Positions 26,736 through 63,831 of a stretch of DNA of 64,000 nt are shown here, piece after piece (position 1 is the first letter of the stretch; the number at the start of each line of letters is the position of its first letter). The notes beneath the pieces were generated by a model. It was given only the letters and a program-made list of their open reading frames with translations, searched no databases and was not told the origin of the DNA. The DNA comes from Thermoanaerobaculia bacterium (lineage in GTDB: Bacteria > Acidobacteriota > Thermoanaerobaculia > Multivoradales > UBA5704). The translations under genes were made by a program, and so were the position numbers. The stretch is from positions 14,305 through 78,304 of the forward strand of contig DASWME010000127.1 of assembly GCA_036399915.1 (NCBI GenBank), read 5' to 3'.

Positions 26736-27230
26736 ATGCCCAGGACTCGCACCGGCCAGACGGTCGGCGATTGGATGAAGCTGATTCAGGCGGACACCCC
26801 GGAGGCCGTGGCCGGCATTCCCCATCTGGAGCATGCGCGCGAGAAGCTCCGGGGGCATCTCGACGAGATCCAGAGGCTCCTCGCCGAGCGCGACTTCCAC
26901 GAGGCCCGCAAGCAGGAGGCGAGCCAGCGGATCCAGGAAATCCTGGAGGAGGGGCGCCGGGCGGCGACCGCCCTGCGGGTCGTGCTCCGGGAGCATCTCG
27001 GCCCCAGAAACGAGCAACTGGCCGCGGACGGAAACGCCGGCCGAAGCCGGAGTCCGGGGATTCCCCGGAAAGCCGGGATGGGAGCGAGCCGCAACGCTCC
27101 GGCGATCCCTCGGCCTAGCCGCCGTCCCGCTCTTTCACCTCTCCTCCCGAGGGAAAGCCGTCTTCCCTCCTTCCGACGGCCTGGCAATGGAGGGAAAGCC
27201 CTCTTCCCTCCTTATTCAGGACGTTTTTAG
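26736..27230 (+). CDS. Hypothetical protein. The first approximately 120 aa look coding, but the 3' end runs into the palindromic repeat array.
   Basis: A GAGGAG ribosome-binding site precedes ATG 26736. The N-terminal region is helical and charged. The last approximately 40 codons are encoded by the tandem repeats, so the real stop is uncertain. Confidence 0.35.
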   Translation: MPRTRTGQTVGDWMKLIQADTPEAVAGIPHLEHAREKLRGHLDEIQRLLAERDFHEARKQEASQRIQEILEEGRRAATALRVVLREHLGPRNEQLAADGNAGRSRSPGIPRKAGMGASRNAPAIPRPSRRPALSPLLPRESRLPSFRRPGNGGKALFPPYSGRF

Positions 27231-27580
27231 GAGGGAACGTCGCTTTCCCTCCTTCCGTCGGCTCGCCGGAAGAAGGGAAAGCCGTTTTCCCTCCGGAGAC
27301 AAGGTGACGGAAGGAGGGAACGTCGCTTTCCCTGGAACCAACGGCTCGTCGGAAGGAGGGAAAATCGTTTTCCCTCCAGATTCAGGCCGTCCTGAGGAGG
27401 GAAAATGACTTTCCCGCGATCGCCGGGCCGTCGGATGGAGGGAGCGTCGCTTTCCCTCCTTCCGATGAGCCGCCGCAAGGAGGGAAGATGGCTTTCCCCC
27501 GGGATACAGAGCGTCGGAAGGAGGGAAAGCGACGCTCCCTGCGGAGACGAGCCGTCCGAAGGAGAGGAGCGGCACCGTCG
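27140..27580. repeat. Tandem array of about ten imperfect palindromic units of roughly 44 bp each (core GGAGGGAAAG-N4-8-CTTTCCCTCC, flanked by TCGGAAGGA / TCCTTCCGA arms).
   Basis: Ten units are readable directly: gagggaaagccgtcttccctcc, gagggaaagccctcttccctcc, gagggaacgtcgctttccctcc, aagggaaagccgttttccctcc, gagggaacgtcgctttccctgg, gagggaaaatcgttttccctcc, gagggaaaatgactttcccgcg, gagggagcgtcgctttccctcc, gagggaagatggctttcccccg, gagggaaagcgacgctccctgc. The period of 43-44 bp is not a multiple of 3. Loop and spacer sequences vary. Confidence 0.85.
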
Positions 27581-57067: not shown

Positions 57068-57862
57068 ATGCCTCCCTCCGCCCTCGACCGCTGGGACGAG
57101 ATCGCCGCTCGCCTGGACGGCCGGCGCCCCGCCCTCTTCCTCGACTACGACGGCACCCTCTCGCCCATCGCGCCGCGCCCCGAGCTGGCGACCCTGCCCG
57201 CGGAGACCCGCGAGGTGCTGCAACGGCTCGCCGCGCAATTCCCCGTGGTGATCGTCTCGGGCCGGGCGCGGGAGGACACGGCCGCCCTCGTCGGTCTCCC
57301 CGATCTCGTCTACGCGGGCAGCCACGGCTTCGACATCGCGGGTCCGCCGCCGATGGACGGCGCGCCGCCGCTCCGACTGGAGGTGGGCGAAGGCATCCCC
57401 GAGCGGATCGACCGCGCGGCCGAGCGGCTCCGGCGCGACCTCGAAGGCCTCCCGGGCGTCCTCGTCGAGCCCAAGCGCTTCGCCGTCTCCGTCCACTTCC
57501 GTCTGGCGGACGAGCGCGACATCCCCCGCATCGAGCGGGCGGTGGACGAGGCCGTCGCCGCCGTCCCCGGCCTGCGCAAGGCCCACGGCAAGATGCTCTT
57601 CGAGCTGCGCCCCGACCTCGACTGGGACAAGGGCCGCGCCCTCCTCTGGCTCCTCGACGCCCTCGGCCTCGACCGCCCCGAGGTCCTCCCTGTCTACATA
57701 GGAGATGACCTCACAGACGAGGACGCCTTCCGCGCCCTGAGGGGCCGGGGAATCGGCATCCTGGTGGCCGAAGAGCCGCGGCAGACGGCCGCGGCGTACC
57801 GGCTGCGCGACACGGAGGAAGTCCGGGAGCTCCTGGAGCGGCTGGCGGCGACGGTGCCCTGA
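57068..57862 (+). CDS. otsB: Trehalose-6-phosphate phosphatase (HAD superfamily).
   Basis: HAD motif I LFLDYDGTL. 264 aa. The start is 2 nt after the otsA stop. Confidence 0.9.
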   Translation: MPPSALDRWDEIAARLDGRRPALFLDYDGTLSPIAPRPELATLPAETREVLQRLAAQFPVVIVSGRAREDTAALVGLPDLVYAGSHGFDIAGPPPMDGAPPLRLEVGEGIPERIDRAAERLRRDLEGLPGVLVEPKRFAVSVHFRLADERDIPRIERAVDEAVAAVPGLRKAHGKMLFELRPDLDWDKGRALLWLLDALGLDRPEVLPVYIGDDLTDEDAFRALRGRGIGILVAEEPRQTAAAYRLRDTEEVRELLERLAATVP

Positions 57863-58183: not shown

Positions 58184-58519
58184 ATGTTACGGAACGAATC
58201 GGTGGCGGATCTGCTCACCCGATTCCAATCACAGCTCCGCCACATCGGGAGCAGGCGCTCCACGCCGAGGAGGCGTTCCACCGCGAGCAGCGGATCCGCC
58301 ACGCCGCCGAGTTGGAGGCGCTTAGGCTTCATTCTAAGCGCTCCAGGCCGCGGTCAACACCGCAGGGACTCTGCAGGACGTGGAGCTAGCGCCAACGGAG
58401 TCCGTTGCGGAGCCCCCGATCTCGCTCGCCTGCGGGAGGGCCAACGCGGCCTCGACATTGTCGAGGAACTCTCCGGCCTCTCGCTGGCGAGGCTTACACG
58501 ACCGATCCGCCCGCATTGA
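58184..58519 (+). CDS. Hypothetical ORF immediately downstream of the iteron-like array (weak call).
   Basis: An AAGGAGG ribosome-binding site lies 6 nt upstream of the ATG, but the protein is R/S/P-rich and may not be real. Confidence 0.3.
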   Translation: MLRNESVADLLTRFQSQLRHIGSRRSTPRRRSTASSGSATPPSWRRLGFILSAPGRGQHRRDSAGRGASANGVRCGAPDLARLREGQRGLDIVEELSGLSLARLTRPIRPH

Positions 58520-58781
58520 CGAGGAGTAGAGACCGGGGTAGAATTACTATGGTCCGTAGAATGAATGACATAGGTATCTTCCGTGACTGTTCGAGGAGGG
58601 ACTTTCAAGCCCCGTCGGTGAGCACGCCAGGGGAACCGTGGCAGATGGAGATGGAGGTTCAGATTAGCGGCACTCGGACCTATATGGCCCTCCGGCTACT
58701 GCTCTGAGGTCTTCCATATTGAGACCGCCTGCGACCCGTACTACACTGACCAGGAGTGTCGAGGAGGAGGACACACCCGAA

Positions 58782-59450
58782 ATGCCGACTGAACTTCGCA
58801 TCCCGGACAGCCAAAGGCCCGCATTCCAGGCGCTTCTGGGCTACGATGAGGCTATGCTTACCTCCCTCCAGGACGCTTTCGCCACTCTCCGCCCCACCAT
58901 TTTCATCCGCGACTCCGCCGCTCATGTCGCTGAAGCTACTGGTTTGGAAGAGACTGAGGTCGGGATCATTCTGCTGATGATCTCCAACTTGTTCGCGCTT
59001 CGCGAGCAGCCAGACATGGGCCGAGATCAACTCCTTGATCAATTGGCTGCCGCGATCAAGGCCGACAGCGAGTTCTCCTCTGCCGCTCCCAAGCTCGAAG
59101 CACTTGTGTCGTTTCTGCGGGCGGTTCTTTCACTTGACGACACGCTCGGAGTCACCTCAAAGGCATGGACCGTGGTGCGCGACTTCGAACGAACGTACTG
59201 CTTTTCGAGAATACTCACGGATATTCGGGCTGTCTTTCGCCCGAATTCAGACGACCCTGCTGCTGCTGTCATCGTCCATAATTTGAAACTGGCCTATCAC
59301 GAGGGCGATGAATTGTGTGAGTTCTTTGTTGGAATGACCTCAAGAGACCTAGAGAAGCTGAAAAAGGTAATTGAGCGTGCAGAGCGCAAAGAAGCCAGCC
59401 TAAGAGCGGGCTTAAAGAGTAGCCAACTTCCCATACTTGAGGTCGAATGA
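58782..59450 (+). CDS. Hypothetical protein (about 222 aa) in a lower-GC island.
   Basis: A GAGGAGGAGG ribosome-binding site lies upstream of ATG 58782. Balanced helical composition. ATGA overlap with the next gene. Confidence 0.5.
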   Translation: MPTELRIPDSQRPAFQALLGYDEAMLTSLQDAFATLRPTIFIRDSAAHVAEATGLEETEVGIILLMISNLFALREQPDMGRDQLLDQLAAAIKADSEFSSAAPKLEALVSFLRAVLSLDDTLGVTSKAWTVVRDFERTYCFSRILTDIRAVFRPNSDDPAAAVIVHNLKLAYHEGDELCEFFVGMTSRDLEKLKKVIERAERKEASLRAGLKSSQLPILEVE

Positions 59451-59785
59451 TGGGTGAGCCACTCCGAAACTGGAACTTGACGGAATCGTGCCACTGGGTT
59501 CGCCACACCATTCGTCCGATCGAATGGGCCAGACCTTCTAGGGTGCTCGCCCCGAGAGACTGGCGCCGGCTGGACCACGCTGCTGAGCCAGCCGATGCTC
59601 CGGATGACCTTGACGACTCAGCCCTTGCCAGTCTTCTAGAGTCGTTCAAGCGTCTTCTCGGGCAAATTGAGGCGACCGATGCCTTCCTGGATAGAGCCTT
59701 CGCACAGTTGGCACAAACCAGACGGCGACTCGACGCGCAACAGGAAGATATTGCCGCTCTCAAGCGGGAGCTTCGTCGTGCCTGA
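59447..59785 (+). CDS. Hypothetical protein (112 aa).
   Basis: Translationally coupled (ATGA) to the upstream gene. The C-terminal half is predicted coiled coil (LLESFKRLLGQIEATDAFLDRAFAQLAQTRRRLDAQQEDIAALKRELRRA). Confidence 0.45.
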   Translation: MMGEPLRNWNLTESCHWVRHTIRPIEWARPSRVLAPRDWRRLDHAAEPADAPDDLDDSALASLLESFKRLLGQIEATDAFLDRAFAQLAQTRRRLDAQQEDIAALKRELRRA

Positions 59786-60092
59786 CGATAAGATCGGTGC
59801 GATTCGACAGCTCCTTCAAGACCTAATTGCACCGGCGGTTGGCCGTATTGAAGAACGCGTCGGTAGCCTCGCCGGTGAATGTGTGAGGCTCGGCGGCGAC
59901 CTTGAGACCAACAGAGGTGAAATCAAGGAGCTCTGGCAAGCGCTCTCCGAAGATCGCGAGCGCATTGCGCGAGTCGAAGGTAGGTTCGACAGCGTCAAGG
60001 AAGAACTGGTTGCCAAAGTGCAACTAGAGTTGGCTCGGCGCTTGCCACCTCCCTCCGGCGCTACGGCCCTTCCAGACTCCAACGAACGTTAG
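59779..60092 (+). CDS. Hypothetical coiled-coil protein (about 104 aa, probable GTG start overlapping the upstream stop).
   Basis: Sequence VPDDKIGAIRQLLQDLIAPAVGRIEERVGSLAGECVRLGGDLETNRGEIKELWQALSEDRERIARVEGRFDSVKEELVAKVQLELARR. It forms an overlapping three-gene series with 58782 and 59447. Confidence 0.4.
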
Positions 60093-60312
60093 CGCGGCAC
60101 TTGGAAGGCTTTCACGAAGCTAGAGTATCCCTAGTAAGAAGCCCCCAAAAGGGATCCCTAATCTTGGGAGATCCCATAGCTGGAGAGAGGCTTATCTCCA
60201 GATTTCGGTTATCAGGAGAGTCGGGAGAGCCCGCGGAGCCAACACTGAGACCCCTTCCGCGCACCTCTCTCCCCGAAGCTCGGAGCCGCGGCCGGCGCGA
60301 CCTGTGCCTGTC

Positions 60313-60370
60313 TGGGGGAGAAGGGGAATCCACTATACTAGGCCCCATAAAATATTCGCGCGGCTCATTC
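60313..60370 (+). repeat. Left copy of a direct repeat: a 28-bp perfect core CCCATAAAATATTCGCGCGGCTCATTCG preceded by a GGGGAGAARGGG motif.
   Basis: The core at 60343..60370 is identical to 61843..61870, an exact 1500-bp offset. The upstream G-rich motif is also shared (60313..60325 and 61819..61831). Confidence 0.85.
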
Positions 60371-60464
60371 GGAGCCACCCTAATCTTGGATCGCATTCAA
60401 GGCTTCACCCCCCCTCCCCCCTCTCCAGCTCCGCTGGGGAGGGGGGCAAAGGCGGTAGGAGCCT

Positions 60465-61385
60465 TTAGAGCGGGCAGAGTCTTGAAGGGGTCGGGCAGGA
60501 GGTCTGCACCCCGTCGCACTCGACGTAGCAGCCGTCGACCGAGAAGCAGGTGCCGGCGCTCCCCGTGCAGGAGACCGATCCGCCGCCTTCGCAGCTCGCG
60601 ACGGCGCTGCAGAGGCACGTATCGGCCTGCGTCGGGGCGGGACAGGTGTCGCTACAGGTGAAGTAGAGCCCGCCGCAGATGTCGTTGCTGACGCAGTTGG
60701 GGTGGTTCTGGAAGTAGCACGGATAGTTGGCGACCAGCTCGGAGCAGACCGAGCAGCCGGTGCCGCGGCAGCCGGCCCACTGCCCCGGCGTGCCCTGACA
60801 CAGGTGACGCCACTGGCGCGAAGAGGTCTTGTCGTTCATGGAGCCCACCGACGAACAATTCGGCCGGCAGGTGAGCTTCGCGCCCACAAAGTTCTGATGT
60901 TCCCAGAGGATGTTCTTGGAGCAATCGGAAAAGCCCCGGGTGGAGCTCAGCCGGTCGTTCCACCCGGAGGGCATGTTGGCCGCGGAGTATCCGATATCCA
61001 CCGTGCAGGCGGTGTCGGCGGTCCAGGTCAAGGTAGACCCACCGAAGTTGATGTGCTCGTAGTCGATCGCCAGGACGAAACTCGCGGCCTTGGTCAGCTC
61101 GTCTTGCCGAGTCCGGAGCTCCTGCTCCAGGATGTCCAGTTGCTCGTCGAAAGACCTCTTCGGCAGGAGGACCCTCCCCTTCGTGGCGAAAAAGACCGCG
61201 TCCCGGAAGGTGGAGAAACACTTGGGTGGCTGGGCTTTAGGCTGAGTTGGATCGATGCCAAGCGGCAGGAGCTTGGCCACGCAGTGTCTGCCGGCCTCTC
61301 TCCCAGGCGGCGCTGCCGTGGCGGTAGAGACGAACGTGATCAGGCCGAGGACGAACAGGACGCTAGTCAGCCTACACTTGTTCAT
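60465..61385 (-). CDS. Secreted protein with a beta/gamma-crystallin-type double Greek-key domain (Streptomyces killer-toxin-like) and a Cys-rich C-terminal region.
   Basis: Signal peptide MNKCRLTSVLFVLGLITFVSTATAAP. Greek-key signatures YEHINFGG (Y-x4-F-x-G), WNDRLSS and WEHQNFVG. The C-terminal approximately 110 aa contain about 24 Cys (CSVCSEL..CYFQNHPNCVSNDICGGLYFTCSDTCP...). Confidence 0.65.
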   Translation of the reverse strand: MNKCRLTSVLFVLGLITFVSTATAAPPGREAGRHCVAKLLPLGIDPTQPKAQPPKCFSTFRDAVFFATKGRVLLPKRSFDEQLDILEQELRTRQDELTKAASFVLAIDYEHINFGGSTLTWTADTACTVDIGYSAANMPSGWNDRLSSTRGFSDCSKNILWEHQNFVGAKLTCRPNCSSVGSMNDKTSSRQWRHLCQGTPGQWAGCRGTGCSVCSELVANYPCYFQNHPNCVSNDICGGLYFTCSDTCPAPTQADTCLCSAVASCEGGGSVSCTGSAGTCFSVDGCYVECDGVQTSCPTPSRLCPL

Positions 61386-61818
61386 GGCAGTCTCCTTTGT
61401 CGAGTCCGCGTGCCGGCCGGCTTTCGCACCCTACACATACCAGATTTTGATATTTGTGTCGATAGGCAGCCTAGCGACTTTAATTTTTTCGAGGTGCGCG
61501 CGTACCAGGAAAGACCAGGGGGCGGGGGACCGCTCCTGGGCTTCCCGCTCCGGCCAGCTCCGCTTTCACCACCCGGCCCACCACGAGCGTCAGGTCGTCC
61601 TCGAAGGCGCCCGCGCGTTTGCTCGAGCTTCATGCCCTGATCTGGGGACTCCTCGCCGCGCTCTGATCCCGGCTCCTCGCAGGTCGGCAGCACTGGGGAG
61701 GCGCTTCTCTGCGGGATGGAGGGGTTCCCGCGCAGGGAGATGACAACGCCCTGCCAGGGAAAGGGCTCGCCCGGTCGGGGAAAGCCCCTCTCCCCACGGG
61801 GAAGGCCTCTTCCCCAGT

Positions 61819-61870
61819 GGGGGGAGAAAGGGAGCCACCAGGCCCATAAAATATTCGCGCGGCTCATTCG
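61819..61870 (+). repeat. Right copy of the direct repeat, immediately upstream of the ECF sigma start.
   Basis: Identical 28-bp core, which ends 13 nt before ATG 61884. Confidence 0.85.
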
Positions 61871-61883
61871 TCTACACTAGTAG

Positions 61884-62456
61884 ATGAACGAGACGCTCAC
61901 CATCGACGAGATGACCGAAGAGCAGGACCGGCGCATCTCCCAAGCGGTTGCCCGCGAGGGATCCCGCCTGCGGGCATTCATCCGCCGGCGCGTGGCCGAC
62001 GCGAGGGATGCCGAGGACATCCTGCAGGAGGTCTTCTACGAGCTCGTCGAGGCGGTCCGGCTGATGACGCCGATCGACCAGGTGGGCGCATGGTTGTTCC
62101 GCATCGCCCGCAATCGCATCACCGATCTCCTTCGCAAACGGGCGCCGGAAGCGCCGCGCGACGTCTCTGTCGAGGACGAAGCCTTCGCGCTCGGGGACCT
62201 TCTCCCCTCCCCCGACGGCGGGCCTGAGGCGGAGCTCGCGCGCGGCGTGCTGCTGGAGGAGCTCGCGGCCGCGCTCGACGAGCTGCCGGACGAGCAGCGC
62301 GAGGTCTTCATCGCCCACGAGCTGGAGGGGCGCAGCTTCAGAGAGCTCGCCGCGGAGACGGGATTGAGCATCAACACTCTGCTGTCGCGCAAGCACTACG
62401 CAGTCCTTCACCTGCGCCGGCGGCTGCGCGACATCTATGACGAATTCAAAGACTAG
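61884..62456 (+). CDS. ECF-type RNA polymerase sigma factor.
   Basis: Region 2 DAEDILQEVFYELVEAVRLMTPIDQVGAWLFRIARNRITDLLRKR. Region 4 REVFIAHELEGRSFRELAAETGLSINTLLSRKHYAVLHLRRRL. Confidence 0.9.
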   Translation: MNETLTIDEMTEEQDRRISQAVAREGSRLRAFIRRRVADARDAEDILQEVFYELVEAVRLMTPIDQVGAWLFRIARNRITDLLRKRAPEAPRDVSVEDEAFALGDLLPSPDGGPEAELARGVLLEELAAALDELPDEQREVFIAHELEGRSFRELAAETGLSINTLLSRKHYAVLHLRRRLRDIYDEFKD

Positions 62457-62467
62457 GAGCCAGTGCC

Positions 62468-62824
62468 ATGAAACGTAAACGGCCGTTGCGCGTATTGACA
62501 ATCGCGGTATTCGCACTCATGGGCATAGCAGTATTCGGGCTGTTGTTCGGGCTGGTGGTGATGAGCCTCTGGAACTGGCTGATGCCGGCGCTGTTCGGCG
62601 TGCGCTCGATCACGTTCTGGCAGGCCCTCGGGGTGCTGATCCTCAGCCGCATTCTCCTCGGCGGCTTCAGCGGCGGCCGCGGCCACCGGCACGACAGGCG
62701 CTGGCGGGCACGCCTGATCGACCGCTGGGAGCAGATGTCTCCCGAGGAACGGGCGAAGTTCCGCGAGCGGCTGCGTCACCGCTGGGGACGGTTCGAAGAG
62801 GAGGCGCCGGAGACGGAGATCTGA
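62468..62824 (+). CDS. Small membrane protein downstream of the ECF sigma (candidate anti-sigma or accessory factor).
   Basis: Two TM helices (LRVLTIAVFALMGIAVFGLLFGLVVMSL, ITFWQALGVLILSRILLGGF), then an Arg-rich cytoplasmic tail. It starts 9 nt after the sigma stop. Confidence 0.55.
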   Translation: MKRKRPLRVLTIAVFALMGIAVFGLLFGLVVMSLWNWLMPALFGVRSITFWQALGVLILSRILLGGFSGGRGHRHDRRWRARLIDRWEQMSPEERAKFRERLRHRWGRFEEEAPETEI

Positions 62825-62825
62825 C

Positions 62826-63074
62826 GGTACCCGGCGCCCACAATTCGTCCTGAACGAGGGGAAAGGTGCCCATGAAAGCGGCAACGAGCAACTCTTCGCC
62901 GCGACCGTGCCGGCGATCGTCGCCTGGAGAACCGTGCTGATCATCCTGCCCGTGGGCCTCGCCTTTGGCTGGCTCTATATACGCCGCGGCCTCGCGGCGG
63001 TGATCCTCTCCCATTTTGTGATCGACATCATCGTGCACGTCGTGCGGCCCATAGTCGAGCAGGGGCTCGCATGA
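62826..63074 (+). pseudogene. C-terminal remnant of a CPBP (CAAX-protease-like) intramembrane metalloprotease.
   Basis: Reads ...EQLFAATVPAIVAWRTVLIILPVGLAFGWLYIRRGLAAVILSHFVIDIIVHVVRPIVEQGLA* with the C-terminal HxxxD/N-type motif. The upstream motifs (EExxxR, FxxxH) are absent, and the frame runs into the preceding gene. Confidence 0.4.
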
Positions 63075-63156
63075 GGCGCAGGGTGGTCAAGGCTTGGCGA
63101 GACGGGCGGAACCTCACACAGGTCCTGTGTTACGCTGATCCTGTGGAGGAGACGAC

Positions 63157-63387
63157 GTGCGGAACTTGACCCTGGCGATCGAGGACGAGGTGCTCGAGGC
63201 GGCGCGCCGGTTGGCGCTCGAGCGGGGCACGACTGTCAACCAGCTCGTGCGCGACCATCTGGCAGACCTGGTGGCGCGAGAGGGCCGGCGCCGTGCCGCA
63301 GCCGAGCGCCTCAGGCGCGCAATGCGGGAGGAGTTGGTCGAGGTCGGCCCCCGCACTTGGACGCGCGAGGATCTATATGAACGATGA
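63157..63387 (+). CDS. Type II antitoxin (ribbon-helix-helix / VapB-like).
   Basis: 76 aa, MRNLTLAIEDEVLEAARRLALERGTTVNQLVRDHLADL. Its 3' end overlaps the PIN gene start. Confidence 0.75.
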   Translation: MRNLTLAIEDEVLEAARRLALERGTTVNQLVRDHLADLVAREGRRRAAAERLRRAMREELVEVGPRTWTREDLYER

Positions 63388-63831
63388 GGCTCCAGCCTTC
63401 GTCGACACCAACATCCTCGCCTACGCCTTCGACAGTACCGACCGCACCCGCCAGCGCTCCGCAGCACAACTGCTTTCCCACCTGATGGACGAGGACCGGT
63501 TGCGCCTGAGCACTCAGGTACTCCAAGAGTTCTCGTCACGATGACGCGAAAGGTCCGGCCCCGGTGGTCTCCAGACCGCGCCCTCGCGAAGCTCGATGAC
63601 TTCGCTGCCTGGCCGGTGATCGCTGCCGATCTCTCTCTCATCCGAGAGGCGGTCCTGCTATCGCGCGACGCCGTCCTCTCGTTCTGGGATGCCCTGATCG
63701 TGGTCACAGCCGTCCGCAGTGGCGCAGGCATCCTCTATACTGAAGATCTCAACGACGGTCAGGTCCTCCGCGGGGTGCGAGTCGTCAATCCCTTCAGCAC
63801 CGGGGCTTCTGGTTTGAGGGATCAGACCTAG
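63377..63831 (+). pseudogene. vapC: PIN-domain VapC toxin interrupted by a frameshift near 63535.
   Basis: N-terminal part MNDEAPAFVDTNILAYAFDSTDRTRQRSAAQLLSHLMDEDRLRLSTQVLQEFSSR* (ORF 63293..63544). The C-terminal part (ORF 63541..63831) TRKVRP...SFWDALIVVTAVRSGAGILYTEDLN is in the -1 frame. Together they give the PIN acidic residues (D..E..D..D). Confidence 0.7.

Follow-up and report, generated by a model that had tools for sequence, protein, structure and literature searches.

Positive autoregulation is usual for ECF sigma factors, whose target promoters carry a hallmark AAC at -35 and CGT at -10 (PMC8103513). The ECF sigma gene described here resembles the autoregulated loci of ECF group IV in having, just ahead of it, a conserved bipartite motif with CGTC at the -10 and 16 nt from the -35 triplet to the CGTC, and in being followed by a co-conserved gene for a membrane protein. 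In other features it departs from known systems. Its -35 element reads A[A/C]AAT where known ECF promoters have GAAC, and unlike theirs its conserved block extends through a palindrome (TCTAC-N4-GTAGA) into the ATG. Known ECF sigmas are co-transcribed with a partner or anti-sigma factor, whereas the 118-aa partner found here has no recognisable anti-sigma domain. The DNA upstream of the gene recalls Campbell-type (single-crossover) integration, which likewise leaves the inserted DNA between directly repeated copies of a short stretch of the target; classical cases use far longer homology than is seen here. About 28 bp is roughly the minimum generally quoted for RecA-dependent exchange. As for the protein encoded between the two copies, it resembles Protein S of Myxococcus xanthus, clostrillin, M-crystallin and flavollin in having one domain with two Greek keys, both signatures and both N-D-x-x-S-S motifs. 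Unlike these Ca2+-binding microbial crystallins, it has four conserved cysteines inside the domain, which sits between a conserved N-terminal region of ~75 aa and a Cys-rich tail.

Within the window, the whole 64-kb stretch of DNA analysed here, the perfect 28-mer CCCATAAAATATTCGCGCGGCTCATTCG occurs exactly twice (Table 1). There is no third match in the window when up to three mismatches are allowed, and in the shuffle control any match turns up in 0 of 100 shuffles. This bears out the perfect direct repeat reported in a first-pass annotation of the same DNA, which also placed the right copy correctly; the left copy starts at 60344 and not at 60343, and the start-to-start distance is 1499 bp, not 1500. 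Leftward of each 28-mer the similarity continues as an imperfect, collinear extension of ~25 bp, which takes in the G-rich motif already noticed upstream of each copy (60313-60327 on the left, 61819-61833 on the right). The local alignment score of this extension is reached by only 5 of 2000 shuffles. Rightward of the 28-mers, there is no similarity between the two sites. The metagenomic origin of the sequence, and nothing further, would speak for a chance match or an assembly artefact. Against this stand the shuffles and the other assemblies: the ENA contig (a k141 assembly) is 100% identical with the same two-copy arrangement, the JGI contig has both copies at the same spacing, and the Logan contig is 100% identical over the left copy, which is all it covers before ending at 60770. 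Because the same arrangement is seen in three assemblies, the repeat is not an artefact of assembly, and at 28 bp it is also shorter than the final assembly k-mers; the probability of chance or artefact is negligible. The 12-mer CCCTAATCTTGG, with copies at 60156 and 60378, had been taken for a nested repeat consistent with recombinational scarring. This is not supported, since local 12-mer repeats of this kind are too numerous to be informative (31 seen, with ~3.4 expected by chance per window).

Table 1. Features of the repeat-flanked locus, in window coordinates.
Feature	Position	Strand	Basis or content
Left repeat copy	60313..60371	+	Imperfect 60313-60343, then perfect 28-mer 60344-60371
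GC-rich hairpin after stop codon	60391..60473	-	dG -58.5, z -3.0
Secreted 306-aa protein gene	60465..61385	-	Signal peptide, N-terminal region, beta/gamma-crystallin domain, Cys-rich tail
Second Cys-rich tail segment, aa 258-306, 8 Cys	60468..60614	-	Specific to the crystallin-protein family
Module of ~60 aa with 10 Cys, aa 196-257	60615..60800	-	Also at the C-termini of other secreted proteins, peptidases among them
Single beta/gamma-crystallin domain, ~aa 103-193	60807..61079	-	Profile and fold searches
The gene's own expression signals	61391..61462	-	Alignment with six homologous loci
Non-conserved spacer, ~350 bp	61464..61817	.	Between gene promoter and right repeat
Right repeat copy	61818..61870	+	Imperfect 61818-61842, then perfect 28-mer 61843-61870
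Conserved promoter block of sigma gene	61846..61886	+	Motif upstream of 80/80 orthologues
ECF sigma factor gene, 190 aa	61884..62456	+	Pfam Sigma70_r2 and r4_2; TIGR02937
118-aa membrane protein gene	62468..62824	+	Syntenic with sigma gene in 70/80 orthologue loci

The right copy abuts the sigma gene, whose product scores 87.8 bits against TIGR02937 (cutoff 42.9) with both Pfam regions matched. Across 80 orthologues sharing 61-75% amino-acid identity, the gene is always preceded by TA[A/C]AATAT-N14-CGTCTACA-N5-TAGATG; the shorter pattern A[ACG][AG]ATAT-N14/15-CGTC stands ahead of the ATG in 79 of them, with a close variant in the 80th. In the window, this motif comprises a -35-like TAAAAT (61847-61852), a 16-nt spacer, CGTCTACA (61869-76), and the palindrome (61871-84), with the ATG at 61884. 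The right 28-mer is the upstream half of the motif. The suggestion that the repeat may carry promoter elements is thereby upheld, as the right copy lies inside a motif conserved before every orthologue. The TAAAAT hexamer that had been singled out in the right repeat is indeed there, but it most probably represents the -35-like part of an ECF-type promoter (AAT-N16-CGTC) and not a -10 hexamer. The AAT-N16-CGTC spacing is that of the ECF hallmark AAC and CGT elements. Moreover, nothing is conserved upstream of the TAMAAT block in the 80 orthologues, and thus the sigma gene has no TTGACA -35. A position weight matrix (PWM) was built from the orthologue sites (66 unique), among which genuine sites score 25-68 (minimum 25.0), and the right copy scores 57.1. 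Its spacing and conservation predict that it is the working, native promoter of the sigma gene. The CGTC lies only 11 nt ahead of the ATG, which implies a leaderless or near-leaderless mRNA, and the right copy would accordingly support self-activated transcription of such a message from the operon of the sigma gene and its membrane partner. The 118-aa membrane protein could be assigned to no family, and it is possibly an anti-sigma factor or another partner.

The left copy contains TAAAAT (60348-60353) and the spacer, then stops after the 'CG' of the -10, reading CGGA where the right copy has CGTC. Since it is without the GTC of the invariant -10, only part of the promoter was duplicated. The proposal that promoter elements were duplicated together with an insert would therefore hold for the -35-like element and the spacer, but not for the complete -10. 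The left copy scores 17.5 with the matrix, below all genuine orthologue sites, and for this reason it is probably a dead, truncated duplicate of the promoter, in other words a scar. If functional, the left copy would give the ECF sigma another promoter or binding site, or would even amount to a complete sigma-A promoter should TAAAAT serve as a -10. Firing rightward, into the hairpin and then antisense to the crystallin gene, it could tie the expression of this gene to sigma activity or work against it, or it could titrate the sigma factor. The copy does point at the 3' end of the crystallin gene, its perfect 28 bp set in where the conserved promoter block begins, while the unconserved part upstream has diverged, and both TAAAAT and TACAAT would make good sigma-70 -10 hexamers. 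We nevertheless consider this unlikely, given the low score, the CGGA in place of a CGTC found in 80 orthologues, the missing TCTACA...TAG block, and a strong hairpin only 20 nt downstream. Nor does such a design recur: in 528 kb of fetched related loci, no site reaches 15 besides each sigma gene's own promoter and the window's pair in duplicate records, and in the 64-kb window nothing exceeds 10 beyond the two repeat copies. The sigma-A version has a further difficulty: the orthologues conserve no TTGACA-like -35 at a distance of 17 bp on the upstream side of TAMAAT, even though the crystallin genes show that TTGACA-N17-TATAxA is in use in this lineage. It is equally improbable that the left copy is a relic of some other regulon promoter or of a paralogous second sigma locus, with the downstream gene deleted or replaced and gene conversion preserving the 28-bp identity. 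Homeologous sequences with a conversion tract would fit the stepwise leftward drop in identity, from 100% to ~80% and then ~55%, but tblastn detects no trace of a sigma-like coding sequence in the surroundings of the left copy, and the window and related loci hold no other regulon-type copies. In addition, the identity extends to spacer positions at which the orthologues differ, a pattern that favours recent copying over convergent regulon promoters.

Between the copies lie one gene and 457 bp of upstream DNA, very close to the ~450 bp first estimated. The gene is self-contained, with a predicted sigma-70-type promoter, ribosome-binding site and terminator hairpin of its own. Its -35 (TCGACA, 61457-62) and -10 (TATGTG, 61434-39) correspond to a consensus TTGACA-N17-TATAcA across six homologous crystallin loci, and they are followed by a conserved 5'UTR element, GCGAAAGCCGGCCGGCACGCG, at 61407-27 and by the ribosome-binding site AAGGAGA at 61391-97. 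This promoter was found by comparative alignment alone, a sigma-70 promoter scanner returning no promoter in 60000-62000. The GC-rich hairpin between the left repeat copy and the gene is terminator-like, without a U-tract; analogous hairpins also occur downstream of homologous crystallin genes, and Rfam gives only sub-threshold, miRNA-like matches to the one in the window. On the other side, the ~350-bp spacer has no similarity in the window or in related loci, and folding places a strong nested hairpin in its region (~61788-61827).

In other Acidobacteriota, homologues of the crystallin gene (57-74% identity) have varied surroundings. A crystallin gene lies upstream in none of the 80 sigma orthologue loci and none of 9 crystallin loci has this sigma gene, the two being adjacent only in the window genome. 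DNA similarity among crystallin loci is limited to the stretch from the promoter to the stop codon, and BLASTN of 60000-62500, the spacer and the flanks against the fetched loci and the window shows similarity only in the gene and the promoter block, with no third copy of the repeat. None of six other copies of the gene is flanked by a direct repeat of at least 12 bp, apart from a tandem paralogue's own UTR. Homologues that sit in unrelated contexts, never beside the sigma gene and never between repeats, fit a lineage-specific insertion. Across the 80 orthologue loci, synteny is limited to the sigma gene with its 118-aa partner and therefore cannot define an empty site. Exact-protein look-ups with the sigma gene and the 243-aa left neighbour match only contigs with the same arrangement, and a similar look-up with otsB finds nothing. 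The G+C content is 0.61-0.69 for the crystallin gene and 0.50-0.60 for its left neighbours, in a surrounding genome at ~0.70, and decayed genes nearby mark the region as one of flux.

Taken together, we favour the view, at a probability of about 0.6, that the repeat duplicates part of the ECF sigma promoter and was left when ~1.47 kb of DNA came to lie just before the sigma gene. This DNA would have carried the self-contained, laterally mobile crystallin gene, and its arrival would have doubled a target segment of at least 55 bp. The searches turned up no relative with an empty site, nor any donor or circular form, and some other rearrangement may have produced the arrangement. The likeliest route would be a single crossover in which a circular or looped intermediate recombined through a short stretch of homology, or else gap-repair synthesis, leaving the left site with a -35 element, a spacer and the first two bases of the -10 as an inactive scar. 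Two observations also weigh against this account. To our knowledge, known transposition mechanisms do not normally leave target duplications as long as 55 bp or more; and several substitutions and indels mark the ~27 bp that border the perfect 28. If the right copy is constrained and the left is neutral, a rough estimate of the probability of seeing zero differences is ~0.06-0.12, at which such a simple model is still tenable. The contrast between perfect and diverged parts could reflect the boundary of a crossover or of gene conversion, or selection on the left copy.

The two copies might also be the attL/attR-like ends of a small non-autonomous cassette, inserted site-specifically into the sigma promoter by a recombinase acting in trans. 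Direct repeats of 28-58 bp around a single self-contained gene, whose family occupies many contexts, are what such a cassette would show, but this is very unlikely: the other six gene copies are repeat-free as described, their similarity to the window ends at the promoter and at the stop codon, 0 of the 80 sigma orthologue promoters carry such an insert or a second copy of the motif, and no integrase or transposase is recognised among the genes searched (53-64 kb). The inserted cassette of the first-pass annotation thus survives in part. An inserted gene agrees with the unrelated contexts of its homologues and the unique adjacency, whereas a mobile cassette with defined ends does not agree with the repeat-free copies and the limits of their similarity. 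Decidedly unlikely, too, is a more active role for the repeats, either with the left copy retained as a working ECF-sigma site or weak promoter, giving the resident envelope-stress sigma antisense or decoy control over an acquired secreted-protein gene, or with the 28-58-bp repeats acting as a recombinase-independent, promoter-targeted route of capture and excision for self-contained genes of secreted proteins.

The arrangement is most likely an ordinary scar of genome rearrangement, which does not overturn current understanding and is of modest significance. It nonetheless offers a clean example of a laterally acquired gene landing in a regulatory region without destroying it, the region surviving because a segment of the promoter was duplicated. 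Recombination between the identical 28-bp copies could, in principle, remove the insert exactly. The 80 orthologues define a very strongly conserved promoter/start-codon block for an uncharacterised ECF sigma group from soil and peat metagenomes, and its motif should be usable for regulon prediction and as a source of synthetic-biology parts.

The 306-aa protein is predicted to be exported and disulfide-rich. By inspection, aa 1-24 (61314-61385) form a signal peptide with a K/R n-region, a hydrophobic core and a cleavage site ATA|A, and 24 of the 25 cysteines belong to the mature part. The crystallin domain has two Greek keys whose signatures ([YFW]-x4-[YF]-x-G) read Y109EHINFGG and W161EHQNFVG, at positions conserved in the family alignment. 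Its two N-D-x-x-S-S motifs, N143DRLSS (in W142NDRLSS) and N184DKTSS, are nearly invariant in the family and agree with the canonical N/D-N/D-x-x-S/T-S (PMC3551895), from which Ca2+ binding is predicted. All the crystallin signatures claimed from the sequence are thus present, and the double Greek-key assignment is confirmed by both profile search and structure prediction. Against the PDB, the domain profile A4 finds Protein S (E=8.8e-12) and clostrillin (E=2.7e-7) with the whole domain covered, and 59 of the 60 matches listed are of the crystallin family. The AF2 model of the domain alone has a pLDDT of 93, and the 50 fold matches listed by Foldseek in the PDB are all beta/gamma-crystallins (target-normalised TM 0.63-0.77). 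The full-length AlphaFold model was unusable (pLDDT 47), and the domain model was used instead. Unlike PF00030 members, the window protein stays below the Pfam threshold (15.9 bits versus 25), and only 6 of 20 homologues match PF00030, weakly; the relative P0057 passes with 25.3 bits. The window protein hence belongs to a divergent subfamily, which the Pfam model misses. Searches of NCBIfam, PHROGs and PADLOC yield no assignment for the crystallin protein or for its low-GC neighbour genes.

The killer toxins WmKT and SKLP belong to the same broad structural superfamily and are secreted and disulfide-bonded. The label 'killer-toxin-like' is nevertheless not supported: they are without the N-D-x-x-S-S motifs that the window domain has, and no killer toxin appears in the profile search (E <=10) or among the 50 fold matches listed, where the matches are to proteins such as Protein S, clostrillin and M-crystallin. 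The Streptomyces metalloproteinase inhibitor SMPI (MEROPS/Pfam I36) is cited as having a beta/gamma-crystallin-type fold (Ohno et al. 1998, cited in PMC4229192). Three small stand-alone relatives (P0054, P0055 and P0057) pass the Pfam I36 threshold and match the window domain with E-values from 1e-10 to 7e-15. The window protein has no match to I36 (PF03995) at E <=0.1, and SMPI is absent from the PDB profile search at E <=10. Like SMPI, the window domain is secreted and contains cysteines, and a further link is that the protein's Cys module is otherwise found on secreted metallopeptidases.

The Cys-rich tail has the length expected from the first reading (111 aa, for ~110) but contains 18 cysteines and not ~24. 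No Pfam model exists for its 10-Cys module, which occurs across 281 representative clusters; in most cases it forms the extreme C-terminus of a secreted metallo- or serine peptidase. Our best guess is that the protein is an extracellular binding or protease-modulating protein; inhibition of metallopeptidases would be pure conjecture. Joined to a Ca2+-type beta/gamma-crystallin domain, this module of ~60 residues defines an uncharacterised family of secreted proteins in Acidobacteriota.

The window contains exactly two copies of the 28-bp sequence CCCATAAAATATTCGCGCGGCTCATTCG, one on either side of a gene for a 306-aa secreted protein (the crystallin gene); there is no third site even with three mismatches allowed, and none of 100 shuffled sequences gave any match. 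The first-pass annotation correctly reported two perfect copies, but its left start of 60343 and spacing of 1500 bp become 60344 and 1499 bp, start to start. Imperfect similarity extends about 25-30 bp leftward of the 28-mer and ends abruptly at its right edge, and the observed local alignment score was reached in only 5 of 2000 shuffles. The window is 100% identical to an ENA MEGAHIT contig over 57318-64000 and to a Logan contig over 57166-60770, and both copies are present in JGI contig Ga0334960_000027, again spaced by 1499 bp. Given this agreement with the ENA, Logan (left copy) and JGI contigs, the repeat structure is not an assembly artefact. A nested 12-mer, CCCTAATCTTGG, located at 60156 and 60378, had been proposed as a recombinational scar; local 12-mer repeats of this type number 31 in the window versus about 3.4 expected by chance, and it is therefore given no weight.

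The right copy lies within a block kept upstream of the orthologues of an ECF sigma factor gene, whose product scores 87.8 bits against TIGR02937 (cutoff 42.9). In 80 orthologous loci taken from a metagenome-contig scan (61-75% amino-acid identity), A[ACG][AG]ATAT-N14/15-CGT[CG] stands immediately 5' of the start codon 79 times, with a close variant in the 80th, and the consensus is cTA[A/C]AATATT-N~13-CGTCTACA-N5-TAGATG. Information content is almost maximal at TAMAATAT and CGTCTACA, and about zero at all positions farther upstream. A TTGACA-type -35 box 17 bp upstream of TAMAAT is not conserved among these orthologues; TTGACA-N17-TATAxA is used elsewhere in the same lineage. ECF promoters characteristically have AAC at -35 and CGT at -10, and the sigma gene is characteristically co-transcribed with a partner and positively autoregulated (PMC8103513). 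Since the AAT-N16-CGTC spacing matches that of ECF promoters, the block can be read as a putative autoregulated ECF promoter, and the earlier suggestion that the repeat carries promoter elements is borne out. The ATG is only 10-11 nt past CGTC in all orthologues, which suggests a leaderless or near-leaderless sigma mRNA. A palindrome, TCTAC-N4-GTAGA (61871-61886), overlaps both the ATG and the predicted start of transcription. It is conserved in the orthologue loci (L006-L085), where some variants look compensatory (for example TTCA...TGAA in L025 and L027), and might act as an operator or as a hairpin at the 5' end of the mRNA. Synteny among the orthologues is limited to the sigma gene and a 118-aa membrane-protein gene, its partner (62468-62824). 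Two TM helices are predicted in the partner, whose tail is rich in His and Arg; it matches the phage families phrog_705 and phrog_2169 ("membrane protein", E 1e-10 to 1e-11); family searches found no anti-sigma match.

Features of the repeat locus and its surroundings
Feature	Position	Strand	Remarks
Left repeat copy, 28-mer	60344-60371		leftward repeat sequence TGGGGGAGAAGGGGAATCCACTATACTAGGCCCC
Right repeat copy, 28-mer	61843-61870		leftward repeat sequence TGGGGGGAGAAAGGGAGCCACCAGGCCC
ECF sigma factor gene	61884-62456	plus	starts 13 nt beyond right copy; Sigma70_r2/r4_2
Crystallin gene	60465-61385	minus	306-aa product
Predicted Sec signal peptide	residues 1-24		by inspection: K/R n-region, hydrophobic core, ATA|A
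Crystallin gene -35, TCGACA	61457-62	minus
Crystallin gene -10, TATGTG	61434-39	minus
Crystallin gene 5'UTR element, GCGAAAGCCGGCCGGCACGC	61407-27	minus	equivalent position in crystallin-family loci L002, L003 (twice), L005, L088, L089
Crystallin gene ribosome-binding site	61391-97	minus
Orphan gene	58719-59450		243 aa; weak EAD2 match
Orphan gene	59667-60092		141 aa; coiled-coil-like
Rce1-like fragment	right of sigma operon		55 aa, truncated
RHH antitoxin-like ORF	63157-63387
PIN-like toxin	63293-63544 and 63541-63831		apparently split in two ORFs

The left copy retains a -35-like element and the spacer, then stops after "CG", reading CGGA versus CGTC in every sigma orthologue; the conserved TCTACA...TAG block is missing as well. 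With a weight matrix derived from 66 unique sigma-orthologue promoter sites, the right copy scores 57.1 and the left 17.5, the matrix-building sites themselves ranging from 25.0 to 67.7. No other site in the 64-kb window scores above 10, and none in 528 kb of fetched loci reaches 15 once the promoter belonging to each sigma, and the window's pair in its duplicate records, are set aside. The terminator-like structure of the convergent crystallin gene, a strong hairpin (dG -58.5 kcal/mol), lies 20 nt downstream, and no sigma-like coding remnant was found close to the left copy. For all these reasons, the left copy is probably a truncated, inactive duplicate of the sigma promoter.

The crystallin gene has about 20 full-length metagenome homologues (53-72% protein identity) and further copies, at 74% and 62% identity, in Acidobacteriota and Thermoanaerobaculia MAGs. 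Their neighbourhoods share nothing with one another or with the window: one copy comes after era/ybeY housekeeping genes, a tandem pair after a cyclase gene and another after an EAL-domain gene. No homologue among the loci compared adjoins this sigma gene, and the crystallin gene is upstream of the sigma gene in 0 of the 80 orthologue loci. These unrelated contexts support the idea of an acquired or inserted gene; that of a cassette with defined ends is not supported, as flanking direct repeats are absent from six other copies. Between copies, the DNA is similar only in the coding region and roughly 80 bp before it. Within this upstream stretch, all seven copies have a TTGACA-N17-TATAcA promoter, the 5'UTR element and AAGGAGA ahead of the ATG, and every copy has its own GC-rich hairpin on the 3' side of the gene. 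Judging by its own promoter, 5'UTR element, ribosome-binding site and hairpin, the gene is an autonomous unit whose expression the ECF motif does not drive. The 5'UTR element includes a palindrome, GCCGGCCGGC, and in all crystallin-family genes it lies downstream of the -10 and ahead of the ribosome-binding site, with unrelated flanks; it may serve as an operator or function as an RNA element.

The locus is most likely an ordinary scar of rearrangement, with part of the very well conserved putative ECF promoter duplicated. In the simplest account, about 1.47 kb bearing the crystallin gene would have been placed directly upstream of the sigma gene, with duplication of 55 bp or more of the target. 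Expression of the sigma gene would have been preserved by the right copy, which runs on into the -10 and the ATG, leaving the left copy as a scar. A single crossover through short homology, with a circular or looped intermediate, would yield exactly this topology, and repair synthesis copying nearby sequence would be an alternative route. RecA-dependent exchange has a minimum of about 28 bp of perfect identity. The differences between the copies all fall within the unconserved leftward part; a boundary set by crossover or by conversion could explain this, as could constraint acting on the left copy. Simple duplication and subsequent drift would also be compatible with the data: with the right copy alone constrained, a rough estimate puts the probability of an unchanged left 28 bp at about 6-12%. 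Exact-protein look-ups aimed at an empty site returned the same arrangement and no other, and no sigma relative above 75% identity was found.

Residues ~103-193 of the 306-aa protein contain Y-x4-F-x-G, W-x4-F-x-G, NDRLSS and NDKTSS, the last two of which fit the canonical Ca2+ motif of microbial beta/gamma-crystallins, N/D-N/D-x-x-S/T-S (PMC3551895). The Pfam Crystall match is sub-threshold (15.9 bits), and 6 of 20 homologues match this model weakly. A domain-only profile matches Protein S (E=8.8e-12) and clostrillin (E=2.7e-7) in the PDB over the whole domain, and 59 of the 60 matches listed are crystallin-family proteins; the crystallin match of the full-length profile is weaker. While the full-length AlphaFold model is poor (pLDDT 47), a domain model from 29 sequences reaches pLDDT 93, and all 50 of its listed Foldseek PDB matches are beta/gamma-crystallin domains, including M-crystallin, clostrillin, the Protein S N-terminal domain, flavollin and spherulin 3a. 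As domain profile, predicted structure and fold matches are all crystallin, the Greek-key assignment of the first-pass annotation stands, with one predicted domain of two motifs. Its "killer-toxin-like" label does not: neither killer toxins nor SMPI appear among the PDB profile or Foldseek matches listed. The domain has small stand-alone relatives (E 1e-10 to 7e-15) that exceed the threshold of Pfam I36, the family of the metalloproteinase inhibitor SMPI, and one of them exceeds that of PF00030; SMPI is cited in PMC4229192 as having a crystallin-type fold (Ohno et al., 1998). The protein is a new, uncharacterised member of a known superfamily.

The tail (aa 196-306) has 18 cysteines. Ten of these fall in its first ~60 residues, a discrete module that recurs in 281 representative clusters at 50-70% identity. 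Proteins carry one to six copies, usually at the very C-terminal end, and the module has no Pfam model. The carriers are M12B, M36 and M10/M12A metallopeptidases, trypsin-like and V8-like proteases, and FG-GAP and RCC1-repeat proteins. We infer that the 306-aa protein is exported, disulfide-rich and Ca2+-binding, with a putative targeting or binding module common to secreted proteases. Protease modulation would be a guess at its role, and nothing specific points to a killer toxin. Tandem arrangements occur at L003 6001-8062, L004 1088-3155, L090 5001-5669 and L091 5001-5411: one lineage has a pair of crystallin-family paralogues side by side, and Thermoanaerobaculia MAGs have the Cys module alone two to three times in succession within other proteins.

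The neighbourhood of the repeats is a region of gene flux. G+C is 0.61-0.69 in the crystallin gene, 0.50-0.60 in the two orphan genes on its left (58.4-60.3 kb) and about 0.70 elsewhere. PHROGs, PADLOC and NCBIfam gave no assignment for either orphan, and their low-G+C block (58400-60350) is probably a separate acquisition abutting the left copy. The ~350 bp between the crystallin-gene promoter and the right repeat matched nothing in the window or in the related loci. Decayed genes occupy 62907-63831, downstream of the sigma operon. Inside otsB (57068-57862), the JGI, ENA and Logan assemblies all terminate within a 175-bp stretch (57143-57318) that has no repeat in the window, and the window runs on leftward past it through otsA; this shared end suggests strain heterogeneity at the edge of a variable region. 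Farther away, 27149-27571 holds about ten units of ~41 bp, each one a GGAGGGAAAGCC-GTTTTCCCTCC-type hairpin (periods 41, 83 and 124 in Tandem Repeats Finder), in what looks like a REP-like or terminator-like hairpin array.
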